A stretch of DNA of 33,949 bases, taken from NCBI GenBank assembly GCA_030605805.1, contig JAUWHQ010000059.1, positions 1 to 33,949 of the forward strand. The letters run 5' to 3'. The notes under the pieces are model-generated. The model saw nothing but the letters and a program-made list of their open reading frames with translations, was not told the origin of the DNA and did not search any database. The translations under genes were made by a program, and so were the position numbers. The DNA comes from Methanosarcinales archaeon. GTDB lineage: Archaea > Halobacteriota > Methanosarcinia > Methanosarcinales > Methanogasteraceae. Of this stretch, positions 2,396 to 24,731 are shown piece after piece (the first letter of the stretch is position 1; every line of letters starts with the position of its first letter).

Positions 2396-2601
2396 GGGCT
2401 TCTTTGCTGTGTTGATGTGGTGATAAATGTTTGGTTAACTTGTTTAAGAAAGGTGGCGCGTGGTAAATGAGGTATTCTGATAATTGTCCGACAGCCGGGG
2501 GATTTGAAAAGTTTAAATACGTGGCAAGTTACAATTAAACTGTAGTGGGTTGTGCCCGGAAGGGATCACAAAATAAAACACAAAAAAGGAGAGTGGAAAT
2601 A

Positions 2602-3651: not shown

Positions 3652-3696
3652 GAAGCGGGGGCGATCACCATTCTTGTAGAAAAATATTCTAAGCCA

Positions 3697-4782: not shown

Positions 4783-4806
4783 AACGCTATAAAGAGGTGC
4801 GATAAA

Positions 4807-7567: not shown

Positions 7568-8095
7568 GTGTTTGACACGATCATCATCGCTCTCTGGCTG
7601 ATGCTGCCGGCATACCTGCCAAACCCGTGTGCAGCGTTCTTTGGGCGCGGTCTCCCCATCGATTTTGGCAGGAATTTCACCGACGATCGGCGGATACTTG
7701 GCGACGGGAAGACCTACATCGGTTTCTTCGCCGGAAGTGCGGCAGGCATCATGATCGGGCTGATCCAGATGGGGATCGTATCGCATTATTCGTTTTTTCC
7801 ACTGTTCACCCTGAAAGCCATCTTCTGCCTCTCGATCGGATCGTTGCTCGGAGATCTCGGAATGAGCTTTGTAAAACGGAGAATCGGGCTTGAGCGCGGG
7901 GCTCCGTTCCCGATCGCAGACCAGCTCGACTTCGTGGCGGGCGCATGGTTACTGACGTTCCTTGTTGAGCGAGAATGGTTCGTCTCGAATTTTACTATTT
8001 GGATTATAATAACGATACTCATTATTACTCCGATTATGCACCGGATCACCAACATAATCGGATACAAACTCGGAAAAAAGGATGTGCCGTGGTGA
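7568..8095 (+). CDS. carS: CDP-archaeol synthase (DUF46 family)
   Basis: 175-aa polytopic membrane ORF with a GTG start. LPAYLPNPCAAFFG...PIDFG......LGDGKTYIGFFAG matches the conserved N-terminal blocks of archaeal CarS. Confidence 0.75.
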   Translation: MFDTIIIALWLMLPAYLPNPCAAFFGRGLPIDFGRNFTDDRRILGDGKTYIGFFAGSAAGIMIGLIQMGIVSHYSFFPLFTLKAIFCLSIGSLLGDLGMSFVKRRIGLERGAPFPIADQLDFVAGAWLLTFLVEREWFVSNFTIWIIITILIITPIMHRITNIIGYKLGKKDVPW

Positions 8096-8397
8096 AAGAC
8101 AAATATCAGGGGGTCATCACCATCAGATGCCCATGCCCGGATGCATCGGTGATCGAGGAAGCGCTTGCGCCGGACAACCTCCGGAACATGAAGATGCAGA
8201 GCACCGGTGCGTCGCTGATCGTTGAAGTGTCGGCGCCGAGGCTCGGAACACTGATAAGCACGGTTGACGATCTGCTGATGAACGCGAAGATTGCGTGTGA
8301 TCTGGCTGCCACAGTGCAGGTGCAAGTGCCTGTGCCACCGATGAAGGCTCCCGCCAGGGAAGGATCGAAATCGCGGAGAACACAGACGTTAGAGTGA
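8089..8397 (+). CDS. pcc1: Pcc1-like KEOPS subunit (tentative)
   Basis: The start is probably GTG at 8089 or 8092, overlapping the carS stop. [21 protein letters not shown]...[31 protein letters not shown] follows the pattern of archaeal Pcc1: beta strand, A..v..AL.PE, then L.i.i.A.D...LR..vn..L. The track start at 7975 lies inside carS and is unlikely. Confidence 0.5.
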
Positions 8398-8452
8398 CCG
8401 GGCAGTCCTCCTGAACCAAACCTTTATCCGAGCGCCGCCCAAGAAGTCACCT

Positions 8453-9469
8453 ATGGGCTCGGATATCGGTGATCTGTTCGAGAGAAGAGAGACCGAACTG
8501 GAGCGATTACGCGGTCAAACCGTTGCGATTGATGCATACAACACAATATATCAGTTTTTAAGCAGCATAAGACAGCGAGATGGCACGCCGCTTAAGGATT
8601 CGCACGGAAGAGTGACATCGCATCTATCCGGATTGCTATACCGGACAACGAACCTTGCTGAGGCGGGACTGAAGCTCGTTTTCGTCTTTGATGGACCCCC
8701 GCCCGATTTCAAGGCAGCGACAATCGAAAAACGGGTGGAGATACGAAACACCGCTGACAGACAGTGGAAGGAGGCGCTTGCTACCGGCAGCGAGGATGCA
8801 TTCAAGTATGCGCAAGCCTCGTCCAGACTTACACCTGATATGGTCGGGGATGCGAAGCTGCTGCTCACATCGATGGGTATTCCGGTGGTTCAGGCGGCAA
8901 GCGAGGGCGAGGCGCAGGCAGCATATATGGCAAGGTCTGGCGATGTTAGGCTTGTCGGGTCGCAGGATTATGATTCGCTGCTCTTCGGCGCTCCGGAGGT
9001 GGTGAGGAATCTCACGATCGGCGGGCGTAGAAAGCTGCCAAAGAAGAATATCTATGTGGAGGTGAAGCCAGAGGTCATCGAACTGCAACAAAACCTTGAC
9101 AGGCTCGGAATCACGCGTGAGCAGTTAATCGATATCGCGATCCTTGTGGGCACCGATTACGATCCCGGAATCCGTGGCATCGGGGCAAAGAAAGCGTTGC
9201 AGTCGATACACAGGCACGAATCGATCGAAGACGTGCTTGCAGAACTCGGTGAATCGATCGAGAATCTATATGAGATCAAGGATTTCTTCTTAAATCCAGT
9301 TGTTACGTCTGATTATTCGCTGAAATGGAAGACGCCTGACGAATCGAAGATCACGGAACTGCTCTGCGATGAACACAACTTTTCAGAGGCACGCGTGACA
9401 AAGGCAGTCGAACGGCTTGCCATCACGGCAGATTCCATGAAACAGAGCACGCTTGATCTGTGGGGATGA
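8453..9469 (+). CDS. fen: Flap endonuclease 1
   Basis: 338 aa. MGSDIGDLF...[44 protein letters not shown]...[14 protein letters not shown] and [17 protein letters not shown] are canonical XPG-N, XPG-I and H3TH motifs of archaeal FEN1. Confidence 0.95.
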
Positions 9470-10725
9470 ACGATTGGATGGCTGAAAGGAGCATCTTCAG
9501 GATCCGCCGCGAACTCTATGTCCTCACAGCCTCGCTCTTCTTCGGAGATTTCGGCACCGGCATATTGATGCCGCTGATTCCGCTGTACATCAGACACCTG
9601 GACGCCGGCATGAGCATGGATCTAGAGATCAAATCTGCGCTGGTGTTCGGCGTATTCGGACTCTTTGCGGCAGCGTCCTATCCGGTGATGGGGCGGCTCT
9701 CTGACCGCATCGACAGGCGGAAACCGTTTGTGCTCGCAGGACTCATCGGATTCATGGTGCTGTCTGCCGCATGTGCGATCATCGATACGTTCGAGCAGTT
9801 ACTGCTTATCCGCGTCGCCCAGGGAATCATGGTCGGAGCGATGGTCCCATCGACTCTGGCGATGCTCACCCATATATCCACACCTGGTAATCGCGGCAGG
9901 TCGATGGGCGTGTACTCGACGATTCGCGGCATCGGATCTGCAGCCGGACCTGCTGCTGGCGGCGTGATCGCTGTGGTCTGGGGATTTGGTGCCGGATTTT
10001 ATGCGTGCGCGCTTCTCGGGCTGATCAGCATCATCCTCGTGAGTTTTTTTGTCAGGGAAACACGCAGCTCCGGCATATCTGGCACCTCTGACATCTCCGG
10101 CTCTGACTGGAGCAAAACCGGCTGTCTGCCAGAGCCGCCCGGCAGCGCAGACCGCATCAACAGTGTCAGCAGCGTCAACAGTACGGCAAATACCGAGATC
10201 AGGCTGCTTGCATCAGCGGCGTTCACAACGATGCTTGCGATCATGATCATAGCAACGATGCTTCCGCTCTATGAGGAACGTCTGGATGCATCGACAGCGG
10301 GGCTCGGGGTCGCCCTGTCTGTTTATTTTTCAGCACGCCTGATCTTCCAGACGCCGATGGGCGTATTGTCTGATCGGATTGGCACGAGGAGGGTGGTGGT
10401 GGCAGGGCTCGGTGTGTCGGCGTTGCTGATTCTCTGGATCGCCCAGGTCACAACGACGCCCGAGTTCCTCACGCTCATGTTTGCAACCGGTGTTGCGGCT
10501 GCTGCGGTGAACACGCCCGCGCTTGCGTTCGGCGCTGATCTGTCATGCCCGGGCATGGTCGGGCAGCAGATGAGCCTGTTTCCGATGGCAAGCGCAATCG
10601 GGATGGTGGCAGGACCACTGATCGGGGGAGTGTTTGCTTCGTATCTTGGATTCATGTCCCCGTTTTATTTCTGTGCGGGACTGATGGTGGCAGTCGGGGC
10701 GATGGTTATGGTGAGGGGGCGTTGA
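9466..10725 (+). CDS. MFS transporter
   Basis: About 12 hydrophobic segments. The [12 protein letters not shown] loop between TM2 and TM3 is the MFS signature. A Ser-rich central loop is present. ATG 9466 overlaps the fen stop (ATGA); the track gives GTG at 9460. Confidence 0.8.
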
Positions 10726-10878: not shown

Positions 10879-11565
10879 CTATAGTTCCAGATAGTTCCCG
10901 TTCACCCTCAACCATTCCTTTTTCCGCTCGTAATCCAGTAAAATTGATGCAAGAATCTCCCAGAATTTCTGTGTGTGGTTCTTTTCCTTGAGATGGACAA
11001 GTTCGTGAACGACTACATAGTCAACTATCGGCATCGGGGTTAGTATGGTCTTCCAGTGAAAGTTCAGGTTCCCGTGCGAGGTGCAGGAGCCCCACCTGTA
11101 CTTCAGATCAAGCACCCTCAATGCACCGGGGCTTACGCCCAGCATATCCTTGTAGATGTTCACACGCCTCTCCATAACTGGCACGGCATGGCTGCGGTAC
11201 CATTCTGTAAAGGTCTTCTTTCCATTCGCAGCATATCGTTTATTCAACTGAAAGAAACCGCGGGAGAGTTTGAGTGGCGCACCGTCGTCCACCAGCTGGA
11301 GCCTGTAGCTTTTCCCGAGATATAGAAACCCTTCCCCGTTCACATATTCTTTTGGCGGAAGTTTCTCTTCTATCAGCCTCTTTTCTGCCAATTTCTGATA
11401 TATCCAGAATTTCTTGCTCTCAAAAAAGTCGTCTATCACCTTATGTGGGCAGTCCAGCGGTGCTCTTAATTGTATATCTCCGTTTCTTTCGATGGTGAGC
11501 CCCAGCGTCTTGCGCTGTGATTGGATGAGTTCATAAGAAAGATTGCTCTTGTTATCTTCTGGCAT
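10879..11565 (-). CDS. DUF45/YgjP-like M48-family zinc metallohydrolase (common type I R-M accessory gene)
   Basis: RWGSCTSHGNLNFHWK and the HExxH motif in VVHELVHLKEKNH. The likely start is ATG 11565 (MPEDNK...), 7 nt after the hsdR stop. The longer track ORF would overlap hsdR. Confidence 0.8.
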   Translation of the reverse strand: MPEDNKSNLSYELIQSQRKTLGLTIERNGDIQLRAPLDCPHKVIDDFFESKKFWIYQKLAEKRLIEEKLPPKEYVNGEGFLYLGKSYRLQLVDDGAPLKLSRGFFQLNKRYAANGKKTFTEWYRSHAVPVMERRVNIYKDMLGVSPGALRVLDLKYRWGSCTSHGNLNFHWKTILTPMPIVDYVVVHELVHLKEKNHTQKFWEILASILLDYERKKEWLRVNGNYLEL

Positions 11566-11572
11566 TGGTTCA

Positions 11573-14500
11573 CTACTCTCTGAGCCGTGAATCAAGCTTT
11601 TCTGCAAGATTAATAAATCTGGTGGATATGGCATCCTTCTTCTTTATGATTTCGGGCAGGCGGGATTTCACGAGTATGCTTATGATGTAACTGTTAAGAC
11701 GCTTTCTTTCAGAGTACTTCTTCCAGAAATCGATGATATTAATCTCTCTTTTTATGATTGAAACGATGTCGATGGTGGCTGAAGCCAATTCTTCCTTTTC
11801 CTGATCTTTTAGCTCTCTGCCACCATAAACCTCCTTTGATAGGATGTCATAGAATGGTTTTTCGATTACAGGGTTGAGACCATCATCTTCTGCCTGCCTA
11901 CCCGCACGCACCTCTTCCAGAAAAGTCATGAGTTCTTCTGCGAGAGCTTCCCAGTTTTCCCTGTTCGCCGCCAGTATTTCATCCAGCTTCTCACTGAGCT
12001 TCCGGTAGTACTCGGGGTCGTAATCGATGTTTGTCGATATATGGAAGCGTATGGCGTGTTCCATCTCGGAAGCACGGGCTTTTGCGGATTTCTGACCTTC
12101 CACATACTTCCCGAAATCATCTGCCGTGATTGCGATCGGCGGGACTTTGGGGTCGATGCCCAGTGATATGATGTGGTCATCTATGAGCTTCCGTACCTTC
12201 TCGCCACAGCCTGCGATGTTGAGTCTGTTGTCTCGGTAGCGGTTTCTTGCGGATGTGTTGATGAAACCAAGGGTTCTCATGTCCTGAATGTACGGAAGGG
12301 CAGCCGGATTTGGCAGAACGATGTCCATGCCCTGCAAGAAGTACCTGTACGCCACAATAAACTCGGCTCGCTTCTCTTCGTCTGCCAGATAATCCACACA
12401 TTCATCTATATCATCTATCGTGTCGATTCCCGCGTTTAAGAAGATATTCAGGACACGCCTGTGCCGATCCTTGAGCTTCGGGATCTCGTCCTTCAAATCG
12501 ATCAGCGCACCCAACACATCCTCTGCACTGAAGATCTTCAGCGCCTCCTTGAGATGATGCCCGATCCCGTAGTAGTCCACCACGTATCCGCAGTTTTTGT
12601 CACTTGCCGGGCGGTTTACCCTGGCGATTGCCTGAAGCAGGTTGTGCTCAACCATTCTTCGGTCCATGTACATGACCTGCTCAACCGGAGCATCAAAGCC
12701 TGTTATGAGCATGTCTTTGACGATAAGGAAGGCAAGACCGTCCTGTTTTTCAGGATCGTCGGACTTAAGCGGCTTTTTGAATCGCTTTATGTCTCGGTCC
12801 TGGCGGACACGGTCGGTATGTGGATGGTATATGGGTTCATCGTTGGTGCCAGCAGAGATGATAGCAGCGGTCTCAAGTCGTTTGAGGGTCTCAAGTTCCT
12901 CTCTTTCCTGCACGTCGGGAGGCTCCTTTTCAAGTCTTTCGATAACCTGCTTCAGGGCTGTGTCCAGCGCTTCCTTGTAGCGGATGGCAGCAAGGCGGCT
13001 GGTGGTCACAACCTGTGCCTTAAAGCCGTTTGGCATTATCTTCCTGCGGTAGTGCTCTACGATATCTCGGGAGATCACCTCAATTCGCTTTGAAGCTTCC
13101 AGCACATCGGTTTTTGTCCCGTATTTCCTCTGTATGGCTTCTCTTTCTTCTGGCGTGTATTCCCTGAACATATCCTCAAAGACATCGTCCAGAGTCTTTC
13201 CGTCTTTTATGGTGTCCTTTGACGTCCTGCCTTCGTATATTATCTGGAGCGTGGAGCCATCCCTCACAGACTGTTCGATCGTGTATTTGTCGATGTACTC
13301 TCCAAAGGTCTCGGTGGTCTTCTTCTTCACCTTCTCGGTGATGAGCGGAGTTCCTGTGAAGGCGACTCTTACGCAATTCGGAAGAGCGTGGAGAAGGCTT
13401 GCCGCCAGACGTGAGGATTGGGTGCGGTGCGCCTCATCTATCAGGAGAAGGATGCGCTCGGATCGATTTAGCACAGGCAAGTGCTTAAATCCTGATTTCG
13501 CTTTTCCATCTCCGCCCTTTTTATTCTTCTCCTGGAATTTCTGCATCATCCCCATAACGATGTTGGAGGTGTCGGTTGCAAGCAGCGTTTTCAGTTCGTC
13601 TATGTTCTTTGCCGCATAGACGGTTTCATCAGTCGTCTTTGCGGTTCCTTTGAGCTGTGTTTCGAGGTCCGTGCGGTCGGTTACAAAAACAATCTTGTAA
13701 CGGCGCATCTGTGAGTCTTTGCGCATCTTCCGAATCAAGAAGACCATGGTAAGGGATTTACCGCTGCCCTGCGTGTGCCAGACCACGCCGCCCATATCTT
13801 TCGGGGTTTTGCCTGACTTGAGCCGATCAAAGATCTTCTGTACCGCCCTGAACTGCTGGTAACGCCCAACGATCTTTATCATCTGCCCCTTATCGTTCTC
13901 TTTGAAGACCGTGAAATTCTCCACGAGATCCAGAAGATTCTGCGGGTGAAGCATCCCCTGAACCAGAAGCTGCTGGCTATTCGGGTTCTTCCCATCAGGA
14001 TCGATATCAGAGAATTTAAAAGGATAACAGTCCTTCCACTCGAGATAATGTGCATATCCGCCGCTTATCGTGGAAAATCTGGCAGCCTGTCGATAGGTTC
14101 CGATCATGAACTGGTTATAGTGGAACAACCGCTCGTTTCCTTCGTTTTCTTTCACCTGAGCGCGGTTGTTGCTGTAGCGTAAAAGCTGGTTTATGGCTTC
14201 CTCCATCGGTTCGGCGATCTTTGGAGACTTGCACTCCACAACAACGAGAGGGATGCCGTTTACAAAGAGCACGATATCAGGGATGATGTGACTGTGATAA
14301 CCGGGTACACCTGTCTTGAACTGGCTTATCGCAAGGAAACGGTTATTTTCGGGGCGTTCGAAGTCTATGTACTTTACAGTCGGGCTTTTCTGATCTGTTG
14401 TGCGGTCCTCGTCCACAACAGTGTTATTCAGGATGAGACCGGTCGCCTCCGCGTTTGCCTCGATCAGGTTTTTCTGTTTGAGACGCACAAGTTCGGTTAT

Positions 14501-14710
14501 CACCTCGTCCATCTGGTCCTCGGCAAGCCATGGGTTGATGCTCTTCAGGGCGCGGCGAAGTTCGGGTTCGAGGATCACCTCCCGGTAGGTGGTGCGAAAA
14601 GAGGACTCGGGCGGGTCGTTCATCTCTAAAAAGAGCGTCTTCCAGCCGATCTTTTCGAGCTGATCCATGAATGGTTTTTCCACATAGGTAAATTCGTTCA
14701 GGTCGGTCAT
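11573..14710 (-). CDS. hsdR: Type I restriction enzyme R subunit
   Basis: 1045 aa. The N-terminal PD-(D/E)xK nuclease block is PDIVLFVNGIPLVVVECK. Helicase motif I is TQGSGKSLTM and motif II is LLIDEAHRTQ. The ATG overlaps the hsdS stop by 4 nt. Confidence 0.95.
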   Translation of the reverse strand: MTDLNEFTYVEKPFMDQLEKIGWKTLFLEMNDPPESSFRTTYREVILEPELRRALKSINPWLAEDQMDEVITELVRLKQKNLIEANAEATGLILNNTVVDEDRTTDQKSPTVKYIDFERPENNRFLAISQFKTGVPGYHSHIIPDIVLFVNGIPLVVVECKSPKIAEPMEEAINQLLRYSNNRAQVKENEGNERLFHYNQFMIGTYRQAARFSTISGGYAHYLEWKDCYPFKFSDIDPDGKNPNSQQLLVQGMLHPQNLLDLVENFTVFKENDKGQMIKIVGRYQQFRAVQKIFDRLKSGKTPKDMGGVVWHTQGSGKSLTMVFLIRKMRKDSQMRRYKIVFVTDRTDLETQLKGTAKTTDETVYAAKNIDELKTLLATDTSNIVMGMMQKFQEKNKKGGDGKAKSGFKHLPVLNRSERILLLIDEAHRTQSSRLAASLLHALPNCVRVAFTGTPLITEKVKKKTTETFGEYIDKYTIEQSVRDGSTLQIIYEGRTSKDTIKDGKTLDDVFEDMFREYTPEEREAIQRKYGTKTDVLEASKRIEVISRDIVEHYRRKIMPNGFKAQVVTTSRLAAIRYKEALDTALKQVIERLEKEPPDVQEREELETLKRLETAAIISAGTNDEPIYHPHTDRVRQDRDIKRFKKPLKSDDPEKQDGLAFLIVKDMLITGFDAPVEQVMYMDRRMVEHNLLQAIARVNRPASDKNCGYVVDYYGIGHHLKEALKIFSAEDVLGALIDLKDEIPKLKDRHRRVLNIFLNAGIDTIDDIDECVDYLADEEKRAEFIVAYRYFLQGMDIVLPNPAALPYIQDMRTLGFINTSARNRYRDNRLNIAGCGEKVRKLIDDHIISLGIDPKVPPIAITADDFGKYVEGQKSAKARASEMEHAIRFHISTNIDYDPEYYRKLSEKLDEILAANRENWEALAEELMTFLEEVRAGRQAEDDGLNPVIEKPFYDILSKEVYGGRELKDQEKEELASATIDIVSIIKREINIIDFWKKYSERKRLNSYIISILVKSRLPEIIKKKDAISTRFINLAEKLDSRLRE

Positions 14711-16047
14711 GCTTCGGCTCCTGTGCTTACCCTGACTTTTCCTGTGAGCAAGTCCTGCATCAAGCCCTTTTTGATCTGCAGGAGTTTGTCGCGGTACGCT
14801 TCTTCTTTTTCGATGCGATCGTCTGCTGCTGTGAGGATCTCTGCGATGCGGCGCTGTTCTGAGAGTGGGGGTAAGATCATGAATAATTGTTTTTGCATCG
14901 TTATTGGGACTTGGTTTCTTGTTGTCTGCGCCATAACTCCAACAAGCTGTTTTTGATAAGTTTCAGAGCGCAAAAAATGAAATAAATAATAGTTATCTAA
15001 TTTGTTTAGATTCGTCCTATAGTATGTTGTAGAGGTGCTTACCATAAAATCTGCTACACCTAAAGCCGCAATGCCAATCCTGCCAACAGTAGCATTGTGT
15101 GCCAATATAACATCTCCAGCTTTTCCAAACCCAACTCTTAATTTCGAACAATAGTCTTCAGGTAATTTAGGTGCAAAATCAAATTGGACCGTACCATTCT
15201 CATCAACATGTTTTGCAGATATGAATGGTCTGCCCACTGTTGAAAAATCCGAAAGCCGAGGATACAGTTCGCCGTGATTTCCATCTTGTATACCTTTAAT
15301 TATATTTGAGTTTAATAATTCGATAACTCTCTCAACCTCCCACCCCTCCGGCACCCGCCCCAGCGGCGAGTCCTTGAACTCGTGCGTCTCCTCGCTGCGT
15401 ATCCTACCCGCCTCGTCGATCCCGCTGGTGAGCAGGTCAGTCATGAGCCCCGCCTTGATCTGCCTGTACTTCGCGATGAGTGCCCCGGTGCGCTCGATGG
15501 TCTCGTCCGCGGCGGAGAGGATCTCGGCGATGCGGTGCTGTTCTGGGAGTGGGGGGAGGGGAATGAACAGATTTGAAAAAGTTGATTTATTTACTATCGG
15601 AACAACTTGCAACCCAGCAACAAGTTCCATTTGATATTTGAAAAGAGATATTGTATAATAAAAATACTCATAGTCGACTATCTCATTTTTACAAATTACA
15701 GTGTTAATCTGCTGATTTGTTGCCAGTTCTCGTTTAGATATTCCAACTTTTCCAAGCTCTCCAATACAAGTAACCATAACAGAATTAGGTGGGAATTTTC
15801 GAGTTTGTTCAAATCCCAATGCTGAAAGTTTGTTGATACCGTCGTAAATGTATTTTTTATCGCCTAAATCCGCAGGAGAAATAAACGGAATATCGCCGTT
15901 ATAATATTCTTTTATTGCTGTTTTTGGAGTATTGCCCGTGATAATCGATCCTAAATTTCCAAGTTTCTCAACCCCCCACCCCTCCGGCAATAAACATAGT
16001 TCAGTCATTTTAAAGCCATTGAAGACCTCTACAGTATTAGCACCCAT
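14707..16047 (-). CDS. hsdS: Type I R-M specificity subunit
   Basis: 446 aa with two AT-rich target-recognition domains. They are separated and followed by GC-rich conserved helices: LPPLPEQHRIAEILSAADETIE...IKAGLMTDLLT and LPPLSEQRRIAEILTAADDRIE...IKKGLMQDLLT. Confidence 0.95.
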   Translation of the reverse strand: MGANTVEVFNGFKMTELCLLPEGWGVEKLGNLGSIITGNTPKTAIKEYYNGDIPFISPADLGDKKYIYDGINKLSALGFEQTRKFPPNSVMVTCIGELGKVGISKRELATNQQINTVICKNEIVDYEYFYYTISLFKYQMELVAGLQVVPIVNKSTFSNLFIPLPPLPEQHRIAEILSAADETIERTGALIAKYRQIKAGLMTDLLTSGIDEAGRIRSEETHEFKDSPLGRVPEGWEVERVIELLNSNIIKGIQDGNHGELYPRLSDFSTVGRPFISAKHVDENGTVQFDFAPKLPEDYCSKLRVGFGKAGDVILAHNATVGRIGIAALGVADFMVSTSTTYYRTNLNKLDNYYLFHFLRSETYQKQLVGVMAQTTRNQVPITMQKQLFMILPPLSEQRRIAEILTAADDRIEKEEAYRDKLLQIKKGLMQDLLTGKVRVSTGAEA

Positions 16048-16050
16048 ATT

Positions 16051-16563
16051 TTACTGATCCTCCTTTTCTAATTGACTAAAAAGCAGAATAGAAAGACGTT
16101 TAAAAATCATTAGCAGGGTCATCATGAAATGAGTAACACCAAAATATACAATCGAAGAAAGAATTAATAAAAATGGATGGTTTTGCCATATTTCGGTAAT
16201 CGCAATTATAATGAGAAATATCAGAGTAATCGTAGAGACAAGAAGAGCATACAGAGAATTTGCATATAAATGCTCGAGCAATAGTCTCCTGTTATTGGCT
16301 TGAGTTACGTTTCCCTCAGCCTTGCCCACGATATCGAAAAGGATGAAAATCACATTAAGAAGAAGTCCTGTAAAGATGGCAAATGCCGTAATAAGAGCGT
16401 TCACAGAATTTTGAGTCAATAGTTTGTTGATTGTTGTGAAAAGTATAGATACGACAATTGGAATTACTATGAAGATTAATATGATAAAACGCAACTTTGT
16501 ATCATGTCGGAGAGTCCCATAATGTTTTTTTACGATAAAACGCACATCAATCAGAGTAAACAT
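16051..16563 (-). CDS. Small 4-TM membrane protein, unknown family (candidate membrane effector)
   Basis: 170 aa. Four hydrophobic helices are visible by eye: RFIILIFIVIPIVVSILFTTI, VNALITAFAIFTGLLLNVIFILF, LYALLVSTITLIFLIIIAI and FLLILSSIVYFGVTHFMMTLLMIF. A 3-nt spacer separates it from the upstream 299-aa ORF, and another 3-nt spacer from the hsdS ATG. I see no recognisable catalytic motif. Confidence 0.7.
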   Translation of the reverse strand: MFTLIDVRFIVKKHYGTLRHDTKLRFIILIFIVIPIVVSILFTTINKLLTQNSVNALITAFAIFTGLLLNVIFILFDIVGKAEGNVTQANNRRLLLEHLYANSLYALLVSTITLIFLIIIAITEIWQNHPFLLILSSIVYFGVTHFMMTLLMIFKRLSILLFSQLEKEDQ

Positions 16564-16566
16564 TAT

Positions 16567-17466
16567 TTATTCTCCAAGATTCTCATTGAGGTGCTTTAAA
16601 TAATCCTCTGATTTTTTCAAAAGATAATCATGTGAAGGAAAGCCACCCTCTATAGGTATACTCCCGTCTAAAGGCATGGATTCTCTGAATTTATCCTCTT
16701 CACCAAAAGTAAGAGTTATTTTGCTCCCATCTTTTTCGATCAACACCTTGATTTCATCATAGCATTCGCCTAATACCTCATAATAGTTTGTTTTTTTCTC
16801 AGACAGTAGAGTTTTAATCGACTCGATCAGGTTTAACTCCTTATTACGTTTAACTCGAAAAACTCGCTCTTCGATAAGTTCTTCCGGGCTCCCGTTATGG
16901 ATTTTTTCAGCGGGGTCCATTGGCACATCATAACGGATCAGTCTAAATTCAACCAAACGGTTTTTTTCGAGCTGCTCTAATAATGTTTGTGAAATTAACC
17001 GATTAAATTCTATAACTAATCCCTGATCACTAAAATATTCGTTTAATTTGCGTTCTAAAACGGTTTTAATCCCATGGACTTTAAACATCTGAAGAATTAA
17101 AATTCCGCGATTTGTGTCGTCCGGAATGTGAAAGAAAAAAAAGAACGGAAGAGTTTCAGAATGTTTTTCCTCTCTCGCATGGGGCGTCTTTTCAAGCGTT
17201 CCTATATCAACAAAATCAGCAGCCACGCCATATTCACCACTTTTTACAATTCCATACACATTTCTTTGAGAATCCTTGAATCCATCCACAGAAATTGTTT
17301 TTTGTGGCTGCTCTAAAACCCGTGTTTCTTGAGCCTCCTTGAGATATTTTTGAAGACATTTCAAAAAACCATTGCCCTTGCCATCTATGTTATTCAAAGG
17401 AAGAGCATCATCCGTTCGCTTTTGCTTAACACGAACAGTGTATGGTACTAACTTAAATCGCGCCAT
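16567..17466 (-). CDS. 299-aa soluble protein of unknown family (candidate sensor partner of the 4-TM protein)
   Basis: ATG 17466 is preceded by GGTGG on the minus strand (about 17470-17476). It has no TM segment and no motif I can assign to a named family. The composition is Lys/Glu-rich and there is an unusual PFFFFFH stretch. Confidence 0.7.
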   Translation of the reverse strand: MARFKLVPYTVRVKQKRTDDALPLNNIDGKGNGFLKCLQKYLKEAQETRVLEQPQKTISVDGFKDSQRNVYGIVKSGEYGVAADFVDIGTLEKTPHAREEKHSETLPFFFFFHIPDDTNRGILILQMFKVHGIKTVLERKLNEYFSDQGLVIEFNRLISQTLLEQLEKNRLVEFRLIRYDVPMDPAEKIHNGSPEELIEERVFRVKRNKELNLIESIKTLLSEKKTNYYEVLGECYDEIKVLIEKDGSKITLTFGEEDKFRESMPLDGSIPIEGGFPSHDYLLKKSEDYLKHLNENLGE

Positions 17467-17588
17467 TTTCCCACCTTAACTAAATTATATTCTCTACTAT
17501 GAGTGTATCTTTGAACAGTATTATCACTTCGCATCACTTCGCCCTATGTTCGGTCATCTTATACTCGTCTGGAGTATCCCCGTCCATT

Positions 17589-17981
17589 TCACACACGCCC
17601 CCAAGGTTCATCTGTATAGCAAAAGGACTGTGGCGGAATAAAATCAGGGACGTGATCTTTTGGATTTACTGGATCGAACAATTCCAACACCCCGATTTCA
17701 ATAGCATATCCCTTGTCCTTATTTCTAAAATAATCGAAAAATTCCACCTCCGCGATCCCCGATAAATCCTTACATATTCTCCACAACTCTTCCGGATGTT
17801 CTTCTATGATAGTTTCTATGGTAAATGCGCCTACAATCCGTTTCACAGGAGAGGAAGCATAAATATACACTTTATCAACGTTATCTCGTTGTTTGAAAAC
17901 CGATTTCCGAAACTCGTATCTTTTATTTCCATTTACGATTTCGTTGACATATTTCGGTCTAATCGACAGTAAAACGTTCAT
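17589..17981 (-). CDS. ASCH-domain (PUA-like fold) protein
   Basis: 130 aa. MNVLLSIRPKYVNEIVNGNKRYEFRK...KVYIYASSPVKRIVGAFTIETI is the canonical ASCH N-terminal pattern. The ATG lies 23 nt upstream of the stop of the preceding PIN fusion gene, and AGGTGG sits upstream of it. Confidence 0.8.
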   Translation of the reverse strand: MNVLLSIRPKYVNEIVNGNKRYEFRKSVFKQRDNVDKVYIYASSPVKRIVGAFTIETIIEEHPEELWRICKDLSGIAEVEFFDYFRNKDKGYAIEIGVLELFDPVNPKDHVPDFIPPQSFCYTDEPWGRV

Positions 17982-19458
17982 TTATCCCACCTCTGGTTTT
18001 TATCCGGAGATATTTTTCATCGGAAATTTGAGCAATGGATTGCGGAGCAGAAATACCCATCGTCTTCAAATCTACCAGCTTTAATGGATTTGGTAAATGG
18101 AAGTGCCACGTAAATAGGATAACCAGCGTTGGTTTTTTTGCGAAATCTTCAATTTCTTCCATGGGATACACGGTTCTATTCCTGACGTATCGAAAAATTT
18201 CATTTTTGTCCTGCAATCCATGGAATGTTTTTCCAACGACACCCAGGGAAGTAATCTCACGCTTATCCACGGTGCGATAAAACAACAGAATATCGCCGGG
18301 TGAAATATTCTTTATTTTGGAATGGCTGAGATATGCTTTTTTTATAGTATTACCCTCAACAATGAATTCACCAGCATGTTCAGATAATGCTGTTTGACGA
18401 CCCCCGTAGTCTGTAAATAATTTCTGATGGTATTCAGGGCGAATCGGGACTAAAAACTTTTTCACATCTGCCCCCTCATAAAAACTCGGGTAATATTTCT
18501 TTGATATTTCCAGCGGGTGCATCAGCTTTGCTTTTTCTTTATCAACTGACAGTTCCTTGACGAAAATATCTTCACCACGATCGTTTACAGCCGCTTTATA
18601 AAATCCATATTCAGTTATTAGATCAACTAAATAGTCGTCTGGCTTGGTAAAATGGGTTAGATAGATTTCAGCGAGGTTGTTTTTAATCGAATAGCCAACT
18701 GCCAATTTTGTAAATAGTTCTCCGATCTTATACCCAACGTGTGTGACGATCAAAGTCGCAATCTTGAGCCTCTTTTTTGCCGGAAGCGGAGGGATAGAAT
18801 CAATGGGATCGTTTTCAATTTTATAAATTAATATTGCTCCGATAGTACCGTCTTTTCTGCGATAAACCCAGCATTTTCTACCTTCTCTGGAAATTTTCTT
18901 AAACCAACTATCAAACTCTTCATATTCTTCTTTTAGAGATCTAAAGATCGGGTCGCTTATCTCAAGATTGTAGACAAGATCTTCCTTTAAAGCAGGTGGT
19001 CGAACCACCTCCTCTCTAAAGATATCCTCTTCAAAAACCCTGATCCCTTCTTCCACGCACAAAACCCTATCTTTTATGTCCAACCGAATAGCTTTTTTAT
19101 GGATGTTTTTATCCTCTGTAATCAGAAAATCTACGGCATCTTTATAGACCGAATACAATAAGGCATTATCAATCTCGTCATTGATTCTCGATGGCGTTCC
19201 AACAATACTCAAAAAATTATCGTCCTTACTTTGGTCAGGAGGAGATTCCAGTGAAGGATAGGTGTTGAGTTTAGATAATGCAATATTCTTTCTATCTTCG
19301 TTCTGGTCTCTTTTTATCTCTTCGAATGTTTCAGGATGGACAAGGATATCAATAGCTTGTGAACTGTTTAATACTTTTAACAGGTGTTGTAACTCATCTG
19401 CAAGTACGTGGTCATTCTCTCTGTAGATGAATATGTTGGTATCAATCAACAGGCGCAT
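17959..19458 (-). CDS. Three-domain fusion: N-terminal PIN nuclease, central GNAT-like acetyltransferase, C-terminal ASCH/PUA-like domain
   Basis: 499 aa. PIN: MRLLIDTNIFIYREND ... HPETFEEI ... DFLITEDKNIHKKA, with spaced acidic residues. Central domain: CWVYRRKDGTIGAILIYKIEN...LKIATLIVTHVGYKIGELFTKLAV...AEIYLTHF...ITEYGFYKA, a GNAT-like strand/helix pattern. C-terminal domain: FLVPIRPEYHQKLF...ISPGDILLFYRT...ITSLGVVGKTF, which parallels the neighbouring ASCH protein. The PIN call is fairly secure. The GNAT and ASCH calls come from pattern recognition only. Confidence 0.65.
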   Translation of the reverse strand: MRLLIDTNIFIYRENDHVLADELQHLLKVLNSSQAIDILVHPETFEEIKRDQNEDRKNIALSKLNTYPSLESPPDQSKDDNFLSIVGTPSRINDEIDNALLYSVYKDAVDFLITEDKNIHKKAIRLDIKDRVLCVEEGIRVFEEDIFREEVVRPPALKEDLVYNLEISDPIFRSLKEEYEEFDSWFKKISREGRKCWVYRRKDGTIGAILIYKIENDPIDSIPPLPAKKRLKIATLIVTHVGYKIGELFTKLAVGYSIKNNLAEIYLTHFTKPDDYLVDLITEYGFYKAAVNDRGEDIFVKELSVDKEKAKLMHPLEISKKYYPSFYEGADVKKFLVPIRPEYHQKLFTDYGGRQTALSEHAGEFIVEGNTIKKAYLSHSKIKNISPGDILLFYRTVDKREITSLGVVGKTFHGLQDKNEIFRYVRNRTVYPMEEIEDFAKKPTLVILFTWHFHLPNPLKLVDLKTMGISAPQSIAQISDEKYLRIKTRGGINERFTVD

Positions 19459-19540: not shown

Positions 19541-20620
19541 TCACCCTCCAGTATTTTCATCAACTCGCCTCCCTGTCCCTTCTCCCCCCCGTTCCAGCTC
19601 TTTCTCCAGTTCTTCAATCGTTGGCAGACTTCCCTTCATCTGGTCAGGCAGCGCATGTATGAGCTGGTATGTGGAGACCCCCATCGGTTTGTTCATGTCG
19701 CGGAGTGCATATTCCGCTATGACCCGGTTTCTGGTCTTGCAGAGGAGGATGCCGACGCTCGGCTGGTCATGGGGTTCGTTGCGGAGCAGATCATCGACTG
19801 CTGATAGGTAGAAGTTCAGTTTGCCTGCGTATTCGGGCACGAAGTTGCCGATCTTTAATTCGATCACCACGTAGCAGTGGAGCCTTGTGTGGTAGAAGAG
19901 CAAATCCGGATAAAAGTCCTGATCGCCCACATCCAGATGATACTCGCTTCCCACGAACGCAAACCCCACTCCAAGTTCAAGGAGGAAGTCACGGAGGTGA
20001 GTGAGGAGCGATTGGTGCAGGTCACGCTCTGAAAATTCCGGTCCGAGACTCAAAAAATCAAAGTTGTAGGGATCTTTCAGGATCTGCTGAGCCAGTTCAG
20101 ACTGGGGCGCGGGAAGCGTCTCTCTAAGATTTGTGACCGCGCTTCCCTGACGATAGAAGAGCCCGCTTTCGATCTGGTGCACGAGCACGTTCCGGCTCCA
20201 CCCTCCCTGGATCGTCTGGTGGATGTACCACTCTCGTTCTGCACGATCCTTCACTTTGTCGAGCAGAGTGATGTTGTGATACCAGGTGATTTGTGCAAGC
20301 ACCTCTTGCACAAATGTTTCATCAGGGTATGCAGCCGCAAAAGCCCTCATGTACTTGAGATTGCGGGTCGAGAAACCTTTTACTTCCGGAAATTCGCGGG
20401 ATAGATCACGAGAAAGACGTGCGATCACCTTCGCACCCCATCCCTCTTCCTCCTGACGCACAAGAATTGATTTTCCTATCTGCCAGTAGAGGAGAACCAG
20501 CTCGCGGTTCACCGAAAGAGCCGCACGGACCTGAGCCGACCGAATCCTCGCCTTCAGATCGGCAAAGAATTCAGGATATCCGGCAAATTGCTCTGTTAAA
20601 CCCGCATCATCGTCTGACAA
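19541..20620 (-). CDS. DUF1016/YhcG-family PD-(D/E)xK nuclease-like protein
   Basis: 359 aa. The N-terminus FFADLKARIRSAQVRAALSVNRELVLLYWQIGKSI is typical of YhcG. The C-terminal block is PDLLFYHTRLHCYVVIELKIG. TTG start at 20620 with a strong AGGAGGT Shine-Dalgarno 8-9 nt upstream. Confidence 0.85.
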   Translation of the reverse strand: MSDDDAGLTEQFAGYPEFFADLKARIRSAQVRAALSVNRELVLLYWQIGKSILVRQEEEGWGAKVIARLSRDLSREFPEVKGFSTRNLKYMRAFAAAYPDETFVQEVLAQITWYHNITLLDKVKDRAEREWYIHQTIQGGWSRNVLVHQIESGLFYRQGSAVTNLRETLPAPQSELAQQILKDPYNFDFLSLGPEFSERDLHQSLLTHLRDFLLELGVGFAFVGSEYHLDVGDQDFYPDLLFYHTRLHCYVVIELKIGNFVPEYAGKLNFYLSAVDDLLRNEPHDQPSVGILLCKTRNRVIAEYALRDMNKPMGVSTYQLIHALPDQMKGSLPTIEELEKELERGGEGTGRRVDENTGG

Positions 20621-20665: not shown

Positions 20666-22756
20666 TCAGGCATACTTGTCGGATTCCGCCATGCAGATCG
20701 GCACACCCGATGCAGCATATCCGAGCCCCTCCAGAAACCCGCCCAGCTTTGCCTTTGCGTTGTCGCGGTCTTCCTCGATCTCTCTTGCTGTCACCATGTA
20801 TTTGTCCCACCAGTTCTCATAGATGGTGATAAGCTCCTGTCTTGATTCTGTGAGGTACTGCTCAAGATGTTTTTCGATATCCAGCTTCAGCGTATTCAGG
20901 GTTTCAACATCAGCCTCCCTTTCGGCGATGATTCGTTTGAGGGTGTACTCTATCTCTTTCCACCAGTTCACGAAAATGCCTGCCACCTTAAACTCATCCA
21001 GAAGCCCAACCGGCAACAGTGCTTCTTTGATGGATGCGATGAACTCCCGCCGTACATTGAAAATATCCTTTCTCGCAGGCAACTCTTTAATGCGCGGCAG
21101 ACTCTCTTCTTCCCACCAGTCAGAAAGCCGGAGTCGCATCTCTTCCTCCACACGTTTCACACCGGGCGCAGTCTCGATAACCTCTTTTATCCGGTCTTTC
21201 TCACCGATCTCGGGCTTGAACCGGGCATAATCTCCATTCATCTCCTGAAACAGCACGCCATCGGTTAAACCGTATTTATCAAGAATTTCCTGTTTAGCCG
21301 CCATCTCTTTCTTTGGGATGCCCCCGAGAAGGTGAGCCCGCACGTCATGGGGTTCAGGGTCTGGCGAGTTGTCCACATACCGCCTGATATTCAGATTGAA
21401 GTCATGTTTCTTGATCTCTTCAACTGTGACGACCTTCGAGTATCCGGGAGTCTCCAGGCGATTCCTGTAAACCGATGTGATCTTCTCGATATCCTCAGGA
21501 CGCAGCCGGTTCTGGTTCTTGCCCTCAGCGTACTCGGCATCACCGTTTATGAAAAGAATTTTGTCTTCTATCACCTCGGTTTTATCCTTATTTATGACCA
21601 GAATGCAGGCAGGAATGCCTGTTCCATAAAACAGACCTGCAGGAAGACCGATTATAGCCTCTATGATGTTGTCCTTCACCATTTCTTCACGTATCCCTTT
21701 CTCCGCACCTCCTCTAAAGAGCACCCCGTGCGGCATGACTGTCGCCATCTTTCCCTTGCTGTTTAAGCTTGCAACCATGTGCTGTGCAAACATGAGATCA
21801 GCTTTCTTGCCGCTCTCAGGTGCAAAGCCATAAGAAAAGCGTTCCTGAAACGGCATCCTGGATTTGGTATAGTTCAGGGAAAACGGTGGATTGGCGATCA
21901 CCCTGTCAAAACGCATGATTTCCCCGCCTTCGGTGTGCTGCGGATCATCAAGGGTGTCTGCGTTCTGTATATCCGCATCCGGAATGTCATGAAGTATCAT
22001 GTTCATCTTGCAGATAGCCCATGTGCCGCCATTGTTATCCTGACCGAAGAGTGAGAGGTTGCGGCTGTTCTGCCCCTGCTCCTCCACATACTGCCTGGAC
22101 TGTATAAGCATACCACCAGAGCCACACGTAGGGTCGTATATTCTCATGCCTTCATGCGGCTCTATTACCTGAACCATCAGGCGCACCACCTCTGATGGTG
22201 TGTAAAATTCACCTCCTTTCTTTCCGGCTGAGTCAGCAAAAAACTTAATCAGATATTCATACGCAGCACCCAAAAGGTCAGGAAACTCAAAGTCCTCGTT
22301 TCTCAGCCGGTATCTGTTGAAATGCGCCAGAAACTCTTGGAGCTTCGAGTCAGGTATCCTTGTCTTTCCCTTCTTTGCGTTGAAATCAATGTGCTTGAGC
22401 ACACCATCCAGCTCAGGGTTCGAGTCCTCAATGGCTGCGAGGGCTTTGTTAAGCTGGTTCCCGATGTCTTTTTTGAGATCCTTTAGTTCAGACCATCTTG
22501 CGCTTTTCGGCACATAGAACATGTATCCCTCATGGGACTCAGCCATCTCCTCTGCGTCTTCCATATCGAGTCCTTCTTTGATAAGCCATTTTTGAAGGAT
22601 CGTCTCCTGCTGTTCCTCAAACTGATCCGAAATTCTGCGCAGGAAAAGCATACCGAAGATGTATTCCTTGAATTCCGAAGCATCCATCTTGCCCCTGAGG
22701 ATGTCGGCTGCTTTAAAAAGATGTGACTCGAGTTGCTGGAGGGTTATTTTGGTCAT
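20666..22756 (-). CDS. hsdM: Type I R-M N6-adenine DNA methyltransferase subunit
   Basis: 696 aa with an HsdM N-terminal domain. SAM motif I is [10 protein letters not shown] and catalytic motif IV is IANPPFS. It has a long C-terminal helical extension. Confidence 0.95.
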
Positions 22757-22919: not shown

Positions 22920-24491
22920 CTAACCGAATTCCTTCCTCGTCTCTCCGCATTTTACGCACCTGTACACCGTGTACTTCTTGTGCGCTTTCAGGAGTTCAAA
23001 CTCGTGGTCGCACTCTGGCGCCTCTATTGCGGCTGTTTCCTCTTCTGCCAGTGCAGGCATCCCCATCAACTCTCTGATTCGTGAATCGGCATCCTTCTGC
23101 TGCTCACGATACTCGTCCAGGAGCCTGTACGAATCGCACAACAGCAGGAACCGCTGGGTATCGATGACCGGGATCAATTCATCGATGGCATCAGAATCAA
23201 ACTCCAGTTCAAATGCCATTTCCAGCTTTAGTTCCAGTTCCGCCCCGGGTCCAGATTCATCGCAGACGGCAACGACGCAATCGCCGTTCCAGACCAGTTT
23301 ACCACTCACTGTATTACCATAATCAACGGAAAGGGACACTCCGGTCGAAAACGAGTCTTTATCCCCTTCCAGAAATTCTTTCAGCTCATTTAAGATCTCG
23401 ACTGTGGAAGAATCAAGAATCAGCTCATTAAAATCGTTTGCAATACTGATTGAACCGGTGTCAGAGTCATGACGTGTATTCGTAATCTCAAACTCATCAA
23501 CCGATTCCTTCTGATCCAGACAACGATATTTGAGATCAACATACACCGGAGGGAGATTGTATATATCACAATCACTCGAATAGCAGTTATCGCAATCAAA
23601 CGCATCTTTTGGCTCGCATTCGGTGCAGAATGCATCGCGAGGCTCATATTCGCCTGAGATCCCACAAATCTCTTCATCAGGGTCATAATTCTCGCAGATG
23701 CGGCAGCATCCGTGGATCGTCCAGTATTCTGATTCGAGCACCTGATCGATTTTAAAACGCGTGAGGACATACTCGGCTTCGGTAGATATGTGATAGAACT
23801 TACCTAGAACATCCTTATATTCCTCCGAGATTGCTTTCAGACGTGGTATGATCTCATAATTGTGCTGATCATAGAAACAGCCGCATAGAAACCCCAGATC
23901 CATCAGATACTCGCCATCTTCAGCGAACCTGTCAAGAAGTTCTACCATGAAGGCGAACGACCGCGGATCCCGTATCTGTGAGAGTGTGCCAAGTGCATAG
24001 ATCGTGCAGGTTTCACGCTCGTTTTTGTCGATCTCCGGGTTGTTCAGACGATCGTTGATTCGATCGATCAGCGGCTGAACTGCCGGACTGCCGATCTTCA
24101 CCAGTGCCTCTAATGCATCTTCGCACAGATCATCCGCGTCGGTCTCGATCGCATCGATCAGTGCAGGAACAGCGGCTGAGCTGCCGATCTTGCCAAGCAC
24201 GCCTGCTGCGATGATGCAGCTGTATGAGTCTACCTCGTACAGATAATCAGCCAGAGATTCAACAACCGCCTCGCCAAGCCCTATCAAACGCTCTCTCACA
24301 GAAGAAATCCTTTTCTTTAGATTTTCGTCCGATTCCGGATCGAAGTACTTATCGTATTCCTCCTGCCGCTCATCGATCTCATCGCAGAGATCATCCAGCA
24401 CACAGAGCGCTTCGTCGATCGTTTCATCAGATATTTCAGTGGTCTGCATAAGCCCCTTATTCTCCTGTTCTTCTACTCTCCTGATCCCCAT
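22920..24491 (-). CDS. Acidic HEAT-repeat protein with a Cys-rich centre and C-terminal zinc-ribbon, function unknown
   Basis: PBS-lyase-type HEAT repeats: AAGVLGKIGSSAAVPALIDAI and EALVKIGSPAVQPLIDRI. Cys cluster: HGCCRICENYDPDEEICGISGEYEPRDAFCTECEPKDAFDCDNCYSSDCD. The C-terminus shows CDHEF...YRCVKCGETR. ATG 24491 with GGGAGGA upstream is preferred over the track TTG at 24530. Confidence 0.6.
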   Translation of the reverse strand: MGIRRVEEQENKGLMQTTEISDETIDEALCVLDDLCDEIDERQEEYDKYFDPESDENLKKRISSVRERLIGLGEAVVESLADYLYEVDSYSCIIAAGVLGKIGSSAAVPALIDAIETDADDLCEDALEALVKIGSPAVQPLIDRINDRLNNPEIDKNERETCTIYALGTLSQIRDPRSFAFMVELLDRFAEDGEYLMDLGFLCGCFYDQHNYEIIPRLKAISEEYKDVLGKFYHISTEAEYVLTRFKIDQVLESEYWTIHGCCRICENYDPDEEICGISGEYEPRDAFCTECEPKDAFDCDNCYSSDCDIYNLPPVYVDLKYRCLDQKESVDEFEITNTRHDSDTGSISIANDFNELILDSSTVEILNELKEFLEGDKDSFSTGVSLSVDYGNTVSGKLVWNGDCVVAVCDESGPGAELELKLEMAFELEFDSDAIDELIPVIDTQRFLLLCDSYRLLDEYREQQKDADSRIRELMGMPALAEEETAAIEAPECDHEFELLKAHKKYTVYRCVKCGETRKEFG

Positions 24492-24731
24492 ATCCTCCCG
24501 CCATCTGCATGTCTTCGCGATTGCGGTCAAAGAACCATATCTTGGGCATCCCCTAGTCCGGGATTGTGCCCCATGATAGTACTTTTAGGTACTCGCGACA
24601 TCGATGATATGACGTTCCAACCTGATTACCACATTTGTGGTCTGGATGTGGGGGCGCGGGTTGATATATCTTGCGGAGTTTTGGGTTATGACGGCTCCGC
24701 ATCAACGACCTGCCCCGGAACTGATGGGAGT

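Follow-up and report, generated by a model that had tools for sequence, protein, structure and literature searches.

A conserved two-gene module, possibly of Rex type, within a type I restriction-modification operon of a Methanosarcinales archaeon

Two adjacent genes inherited as a unit

The subject of this analysis is a pair of adjacent genes, designated A and B, located on a 33,949-nt stretch of DNA from a Methanosarcinales archaeon (GenBank assembly GCA_030605805.1, contig JAUWHQ010000059.1); this whole stretch is referred to below as the window. Gene A (16567..17466, minus strand) encodes a soluble protein of 299 amino acids (34.7 kDa, pI 5.8), and gene B (16051..16563, minus strand) a basic protein of 170 amino acids (pI 9.6) with four transmembrane (TM) segments. 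Both lie between a gene encoding an ASCH protein and hsdS, inside a type I restriction-modification (R-M) operon. On the same strand, gene A is preceded by a 122-nt spacer (17467..17588), in which the ribosome-binding motif GGTGG (17471-17475) stands 4 nt before the ATG of A. Only 3 nt (TAA-ata-ATG, 16564..16566) separate A from B, and a second 3-nt junction (TAA-aat-ATG, 16048..16050) follows B; from the pair, reading continues directly into hsdS and hsdR. The two same-strand genes, both junctions, the GGTGG motif and the spacer had been described in a first-pass annotation made from the sequence, and the list of open reading frames (ORFs) together with a reading of the minus strand agrees with this description. 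The four hydrophobic helices that it assigned to the smaller protein are likewise found by hydropathy analysis and in an AlphaFold model.

Both A and B are real, selected genes, since their dN/dS values against an 80%-identical relative are 0.18 and 0.14, respectively, and hundreds of full-length homologues exist. A B-family gene directly follows A in all 23 loci (about 13 of them distinct) obtained by exact-protein look-ups, including those of A members from bacterial contigs at only 25% identity. A metagenome scan performed with a bacterial sub-alignment returned 65 loci, 58 of which had at least 200 nt of downstream sequence. In 55 of these 58, a B-family ORF is located directly downstream of A, the exceptions being two loci with a partial TM-containing ORF and one with a truncated A. 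The pairing is kept as well in the three phage or plasmid records available (one filamentous Pseudomonas phage and two plasmids), and the A/B junctions of homologous pairs mostly measure -4, -1 or +1 to +12 nt, overlaps of 1 or 4 nt being the most usual. Moreover, the identity matrices of A and B correlate over 53 complete pairs (r=0.879), a value reached by none of 2000 Mantel permutations. The conserved pairing with a four-TM gene, which the first-pass annotation had put forward as a test, is therefore present in almost all loci of these collections, and A and B are inherited as a unit. Their co-divergence is consistent with a physical interaction between the two proteins, without being a proof of one.

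Families and predicted structures of proteins A and B

Protein A has no match in Pfam, NCBIfam or PADLOC-DB v2. The same is true of its relatives scanned one by one: no named family was recognized among 35 close and 48 diverse members, PADLOC giving no more than scattered single weak matches for the 48. The absence of a recognizable family, remarked at first reading, is thus general. Single-sequence and profile searches of A against PDB sequences did not rise above noise level, the matches (E>=0.004) being to HPr kinase, a CAP repeat protein and Hsp20. A word-indexed search detected 41 relatives of A and 29 of B, and an exhaustive profile search for A retrieved 1,956 representative proteins at E<=1e-3, 1,422 at E<=1e-10 and 505 at E<=1e-30. 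The listing of the 150 top scorers consists almost entirely of full-length proteins of about 300 amino acids. The closest relatives belong to metagenome-assembled genomes of Methanoperedenaceae and Methanosarcinales. Most of the approximately 2,000 representatives come from soil and sediment metagenomes, and others are carried by a phage of Pseudomonas and by plasmids of Clostridium and Acinetobacter; the module is not confined to archaea. When a narrower alignment was used, A-family loci appeared in five species genomes and one IMG/VR contig only, and a hand-made degenerate DNA pattern found nothing in viral contigs.

The sole library in which this family is known is PHROGs. Indeed, phrog_15676 is matched by 36 of the 48 diverse members (best E=9e-19) and by the window protein itself (E=1.4e-4), and phrog_36224 by 13 of the 48. 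These PHROGs are true sequence relatives of A; as they carry no annotation, they document phage carriage and add no function. A longer form of the protein exists in locus L011 (8830-10017, plus strand) and also in L012. This variant of 395 amino acids, with an extended N-terminus and a charged-rich insertion of about 30 residues after residue ~28, aligns to the family with an hhalign probability of 100%; it shares an overlap of 17 nt with its four-TM partner, and the pair has IS transposase genes on either side.

Conservation in protein A is concentrated in the motifs SGEYG (76-80) and SE..PFFF (103-110). Just two positions, G77 and P107, do not vary at all across the 48 diverse members, and no conserved catalytic constellation is present. 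Because the invariant and near-invariant positions are glycines, prolines, aromatic residues and a single glutamate, A would be expected to act by binding or as a scaffold, and not by catalysis.

The AlphaFold model of A, built from 35 homologues, has a pLDDT of 86.2 and a pTM of 0.76. Compared by Foldseek with the PDB, it yields E<=0.001 only for chains A and B of Escherichia coli RdgC (2owl), with E=1.7e-4 and 5e-4, a probability of 0.99 and an alignment over the whole length. In BFVD, the first matches are five uncharacterised phage proteins (E=3.5e-22 to 2.3e-8), which are the phage relatives of the family itself. The next three, known by entry name only, are labeled 'Exonuclease', 'Recombination associated protein' and 'Recombination-associated protein' (E=1.2e-4 to 9.3e-3), and tblastn indicates that phage records name RdgC homologues in a like manner. 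By sequence, A does not belong to the RdgC family PF04381: it has no Pfam match, and hhalign gives 0.2% against E. coli RdgC and 0.5% against a profile of eight RdgC sequences. The crystal structure of lambda RexA was found, unexpectedly, to resemble RdgC 2OWL (PMC11077077). RexA is a dimeric non-specific DNA binder, and RexB, encoded just downstream, is a four-TM protein of the inner membrane (PMC11077077). Because the model of A matches RdgC, the published structural relative of RexA, A is predicted to lie in the structural neighbourhood of RexA, with the same kind of partner and the same gene order.

Protein B displays hydrophobic segments in Kyte-Doolittle windows at residues 20-50, 53-82, 99-127 and 130-154. 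Its AlphaFold model (pLDDT 85.2) is all-helical, with loops of at most 20 residues, and consists of helices 24-44, 51-81, 89-123 and 129-169 preceded by an N-terminal amphipathic helix (7-21). The distribution of lysine and arginine predicts that both termini face the cytoplasm (N-in/C-in). The residues conserved in family alignments are P35, N70, HLYANS (98-103), S136, H145 and R156; the HLYANS motif lies at the start of TM3, and N70, S136 and H145 are situated within helices. No match to B was obtained in Pfam, in NCBIfam or among PDB sequences, and PADLOC offers only a weak '2TM effector' (E=0.0054).

The operon of the window and other genomic contexts

The host is archaeal, as attested by a FEN1 gene with XPG_N and XPG_I domains (8453-9469). 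The operon runs on the minus strand and opens with hsdM (20666..22756), whose translation contains the NPPF motif. This gene is followed by a PD-(D/E)xK nuclease of the DUF1016/YhcG type (DUF1016_N and YhcG_C domains, 19541..20620; PADLOC candidate PDC-S02, E=5e-157) and by two further PADLOC candidates, PDC-M11A, a PIN-containing protein of 499 amino acids (17959-19458, E=4e-155), and PDC-M11B, the ASCH protein of 130 amino acids (17589-17981, E=1.6e-47). The genes of the latter two overlap by 23 nt and also match PHROGs 10674 and 3136. A and B come next, as the fourth and fifth extra genes inside this R-M operon, then hsdS (14707..16047) and hsdR (11573..14710). A gene for a YgjP-like (DUF45/WLM-type) metallopeptidase (10879-11634), which shares 62 nt with hsdR at the 3' end of the latter, looks like a further member of the operon. 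Immediately upstream of hsdM, on the same strand, lies a gene for a 536-residue protein with HEAT repeats and many Cys-x-x-Cys motifs (22920-24530).

The composition of this region is far from uniform. The low G+C of the pair relative to hsdR and hsdM, first estimated by hand counts, is confirmed: it amounts to 0.373 for A and 0.337 for B, against 0.497 for hsdR, 0.492 for hsdM and 0.529 for the DUF1016 gene. The pair is read as being of foreign origin on account of this contrast (0.34-0.39 against 0.49-0.53 in the R-M core). The low-G+C block is wider than the pair, extending over about 16051-19458, and includes both PDC-M11 genes (0.38-0.39). Because PDC-M11A, PDC-M11B, A and B share this single block, their composition points to an insertion of four foreign genes into the R-M operon; the DUF1016 nuclease is probably an older resident, since its G+C resembles that of the R-M core. 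The spacer upstream of A has a G+C of 0.393, which falls to 0.283 in its last 60 nt, where ATATAATTTA is found, and may hold an internal archaeal promoter. In other genomes the pair must have its own promoter, since it stands alone.

The G+C of hsdS is also heterogeneous, being low in its target-recognition domains (TRDs; 0.37-0.41) and high in the central and C-terminal conserved regions (0.51-0.59), a pattern that reads as the signature of TRD exchange. A connection between this low G+C and the insertion of A and B was considered and rejected, as low values in both TRDs beside high values in the conserved regions are the usual pattern of these domains. A second low-G+C islet (0.34-0.40) occupies positions 2545-6585 on the plus strand. 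It contains two ORFs of 368 and 361 amino acids without Pfam match, followed by a gene for a GmrSD-type (type IV) restriction enzyme (4807-6585). Together with the islet in the R-M operon, it makes two separate defence islets about 10 kb apart in the window.

A second insertion of an A/B pair between hsdM and hsdS was detected in a Woesearchaeota genome (locus L005), whose A is 38% identical to that of the window. The two insertions are independent, because the hsdS proteins are only 21-22% identical; the same figure led to the rejection of a cassette common to both operons. The gene order of the Woesearchaeota operon is hsdM-A-B-hsdS-X-hsdR, in which X is a 432-residue gene (12753-14051, plus strand) without Pfam match, and an integrase and a VapBC pair are found after the operon. 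The view that the pair rides on an R-M operon is consequently valid for the window and for this one genome. No further case was found among the loci examined, and the module can do without R-M.

Other loci associate the pair with different defence or mobile genes. In L001, A and B adjoin an AlwI-type R-M system, and divergent ParB_N and PRTase-CE genes (7976-9735, minus strand) are found just upstream; they also neighbour a lengthy series of short ORFs without annotation, together with genes for archaeal primase, and the whole looks like an integrated element. Another pair is located beside EcoRII-C, Dcm, Vsr and HNH genes, one is flanked by IS transposases and a DNA methylase, and yet another lies next to an integrase. 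Pairs are also carried by one Clostridium and one Acinetobacter plasmid, BrnT/BrnA adjoining a plasmid-borne copy. On L017 (7398-13392), an IMG/VR contig of 86 kb, the pair is inserted between portal/Mu-F-like and DUF2213 genes, a place like that of a moron in the genome of a tailed archaeal virus; a divergently oriented gene for a tandem DUF488 protein lies just upstream. In L059 (8168-9175, plus strand), as well as in L063 and related soil-metagenome loci, a gene for Beta_protein (PF14350, E=2.5e-53), known in PADLOC as cll or PD-Lambda-2_C, is located about 100 nt downstream of the pair. This may be a recurrent arrangement of three genes; the loci concerned are perhaps not independent of one another.

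The pair also occurs in PfAC16, a filamentous Pseudomonas phage. In a tblastn search the window protein A matches its ORF1 with E=4e-12 and 24% identity, 98% of the length of A being aligned, and ORF2, which overlaps ORF1 by 4 nt, encodes a four-TM protein of the B family (E=1.3e-22). The pair of PfAC16, like that of a second Pf record, is situated between the end of the integrase gene and the genes for repressor C and excisionase. This same accessory slot holds Gabija, Avs, IetAS, Kiwa or retrons in other Pf phages, and a published PADLOC survey left ORF1 and ORF2 of PfAC16 as hypothetical and unflagged (PMC11878078). Several further copies of the pair are bare two-gene islets among housekeeping genes. 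As a whole, the distribution is patchy, as it is for accessory modules that are small and mobile.

Proposed function and comparison with known systems

Taken together, these observations suggest that A and B probably constitute a defence or exclusion module of some kind. A narrower proposal, for which the chances appear slightly short of even, is a module of RexAB type in which A would be the sensor and B the membrane effector. In P. putida, over-production of the RexA-like protein of RexABpp stimulates its four-TM partner, itself without similarity to RexB, and causes membrane damage (PMC12894663). By analogy with such systems, DNA binding by A, its interaction with B, the membrane effector role of B and a defence phenotype can be inferred. 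The pair would then be a self-contained, horizontally mobile, two-component module for the exclusion of viruses or other mobile genetic elements. A, as a non-enzymatic and cytoplasmic RdgC-like protein, would dimerise into a clamp like RdgC, RexA and RexApp, and would sense the invader by binding its DNA or intermediates of its replication or recombination. It would next engage B through the cytoplasmic N-terminal helix, the TM2-TM3 loop carrying HLYANS, or the C-terminus with R156. B might then oligomerise, or open as a channel or pore, and depolarisation of the membrane would lead to growth arrest or cell death and block virus production. This course of events follows the classical Rex model as well as RexABpp, and the membrane action of abortive-infection type proposed at first reading is a hypothesis by analogy. 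In the window, this module and the PDC-M11 pair would both have been inserted into an R-M operon of type I, where the module, sharing a transcript with hsdS and hsdR, would provide a second line of defence.

Several results weigh against this proposal. The match of A to RdgC has a global TM score of only 0.30-0.33 and a root mean square deviation of 12.9 A; the fold assignment comes from local 3Di similarity and a predicted model, and the low global score may reflect a different inter-domain geometry. The RexA structure itself (8TWQ), present in the Foldseek library, is not among the 50 best matches of the model, and alignments of A compared by hhalign with lambda RexA or with a 21-sequence RexA profile reach probabilities of 0.2-2.9% only. 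Likewise, B has no match to PF15968 and scores 0.4% by hhalign against lambda RexB, and the Foldseek search with its model returned generic helical bundles only (best E=0.84), so a channel role for B is purely an analogy. In lambda, the link between DNA binding by RexA and exclusion is disputed (PMC11077077). For every member of the A/B family, the idea of defence is drawn from genes and models. Finally, the 123 nearest ORFs of 40 loci are mostly ordinary metabolic and transport genes, and by plain count only roughly a tenth are defence genes or genes of mobile genetic elements. The commonest neighbour families are Beta_protein (3 loci), DNA methylases, integrases and transposases. The defence-island setting initially expected for the homologues holds to the extent that the pair recurs beside defence and mobile genes, but most of its neighbours are housekeeping. 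As for the hhalign values, RexA and RdgC profiles, which represent established structural homologues, give 0.6% when compared with each other; this control being negative too, profile comparison does not reach such a depth, and its negative results tell against membership of a family while leaving a kinship of fold unaffected. No PF15969 (RexA) match was found for the window A or for its 35 close and 48 diverse relatives.

The main rival is an inverse polarity similar to that of Kiwa, rather unlikely but the most serious of the alternatives. B would be here a membrane sensor or anchor for virus attachment or DNA entry and A a clamp-like effector; held at the membrane, A would capture the incoming DNA and block its replication and transcription, without killing the cell. 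Kiwa is built from the same parts, a four-TM KwaA and a dimeric KwaB of about 310 amino acids with a positively charged channel and non-specific DNA binding (bioRxiv 10.1101/2023.02.26.530102). The RdgC-like clamp fold predicted for A would suit this role, RdgC acting by DNA binding and not by signalling, and the tight co-divergence of A and B is what a stable complex would produce. The same preprint, however, describes kwaA as preceding kwaB, the reverse of the order of A and B, and KwaA as having, beside its four TM segments, a cytoplasmic beta-barrel formed by ICL1 and the C-terminus (bioRxiv 10.1101/2023.02.26.530102), which the all-helical model of B lacks. In addition, neither DUF4868 nor a PADLOC Kiwa match was detected in A or in its 48 relatives, and the Foldseek lists for A and B contain no Kiwa chain. 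On these grounds the comparison with Kiwa made in the first-pass annotation is not supported.

In a further and improbable reading, the pair would serve the mobile elements that carry it, and not immunity. A would then be a DNA-binding regulator of the RdgC/RexA kind, tethered to the membrane by B, which modulates recombination (through RecA or RadA), the lysogeny switch, or the segregation and maintenance of the carrier DNA. RdgC is indeed a nucleoid-associated modulator of RecA, and RexA biases the lysis-lysogeny switch of lambda independently of RexB (PMC11077077). The pair of the Pf prophages adjoins repressor C and excisionase, and that of L001 adjoins ParB_N and CbiA/ParA-like genes in an apparent integrated element. 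Such a role would hardly account for the many isolated islets among housekeeping genes, where no element to serve is visible, nor for two independent insertions in type I R-M operons, and it leaves the strict need for a membrane partner unexplained. Still less credit can be given to an addiction cassette of the toxin-antitoxin kind, in which B would be a small membrane toxin and A its antidote, stabilising the host island or operon. The succession of a larger soluble protein and a small, basic, hydrophobic one with translational coupling, the presence on plasmids and prophages, and the proximity of BrnT/BrnA, HigB and UPF0175 genes agree with this idea, as does the growth suppression exerted by the membrane protein of RexABpp when stimulated (PMC12894663). 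In that system, nevertheless, the soluble partner activates the membrane protein instead of neutralising it (PMC12894663), and antitoxins are usually small and labile whereas A has 300 residues and a conserved multi-domain fold. Moreover, addiction overlaps with abortive infection rather than excluding it. Least credible is a function as accessory of the type I R-M enzyme, for instance in membrane anchoring or in the regulation of restriction. The position between hsdM and hsdS with 3-nt junctions, found again at the same place in the Woesearchaeota operon, would favor it. This accessory role was rejected on distribution and is nearly excluded, a type I operon being present in only 2 of the more than 60 loci examined and hsd genes being absent near all the others; in the window, the composition of the pair also sets it apart from the hsd genes as foreign.

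No phage-exclusion system has been known for longer than RexAB, whose mechanism remains under debate and which has been regarded as a narrow peculiarity of lambdoid phages with a few analogues. A wider reading of the present data, more doubtful than the RexAB-type module itself, is that A and B define a large superfamily, as yet without a name and spread across prokaryotes, whose members are immune modules of Rex type made of an RdgC-fold DNA sensor and a four-TM effector. Lambda RexAB would be one small divergent branch of it, the window its first archaeal example, and R-M operons, prophage moron slots and plasmids the places where the cassette is inserted. If this were true, roughly 2,000 clusters of one architecture would recast the narrow status of RexAB, with a breadth covering methanogen-related and DPANN archaea, soil bacteria, plasmids, filamentous Pseudomonas phages and an archaeal virus. 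The combination of a DNA clamp and a small membrane protein would become a general immune design, many tractable orthologues, such as ORF1/ORF2 of PfAC16 in P. aeruginosa, would become available to study the coupling of sensing to the membrane, and archaeal virology would gain a candidate abortive-infection system. Defence-annotation tools, which now miss the A/B family, would receive a new entry. Overall, the initial interpretation is partly supported, and the pair is a solid candidate defence system with tractable bacterial orthologues rather than a categorically new principle.

Among known systems, PrrC and RloC share with A and B only their position inside a type I operon, since none of their ABC-ATPase and nuclease domains is detected in either protein by Pfam or NCBIfam. 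The likeness to Kiwa is limited to the association of a four-TM protein with a DNA-binding protein (in the case of A, a predicted one) and to the carriage of both systems as morons of Pf phages; in addition to the differences in gene order and in the beta-barrel of KwaA, KwaB possesses a Rossmann-like domain and DUF4868, neither of which was detected in A. RdgC, whose base, centre and tip domains form a ring dimer, is matched by the model of A over its full length (303 against about 300 amino acids), and catalytic motifs are absent from both, but it is encoded by a stand-alone gene without membrane partner whereas A is followed by a four-TM gene in nearly every locus. In the literature, the pairing of an RdgC-like protein with a TM partner for defence was found only in papers devoted to Rex.

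The closest comparison is with the RexAB-type systems of lambda, P. putida (RexABpp) and the actinophages Sbash (gp30/31) and CarolAnn (gp43/44). In all of them a soluble protein of roughly 280-370 amino acids comes first and a four-TM inner-membrane protein of roughly 145-180 amino acids is encoded immediately downstream on the same strand, as for A and B. RexA and A would belong to the same RdgC-like class, by crystallography for the former (PMC11077077) and by prediction for the latter. Carriage by temperate phages beside a repressor is shared as well, through the Pf prophages, and RexABpp has in common with B a membrane partner without detectable similarity to RexB. The parallel with RexA/RexB drawn at first reading stands for gene order and for the four-TM partner, is strengthened by the match of the model to RdgC, and fails for sequence similarity. 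A and B differ from these systems by their location in the window, which is a type I R-M operon and not a prophage immunity region beside a repressor; to our knowledge, insertions inside type I R-M operons are a first for the Rex-type architecture. The A/B family is also broader, being present in archaea, soil bacteria, Bacillota and Acinetobacter plasmids, in R-M operons and in chromosomal islets. The pair is RexAB-like in layout and probably in fold class, and is best described as belonging to a family of Rex-type architecture that has no name, is much larger and covers a wider range of taxa, archaea included.

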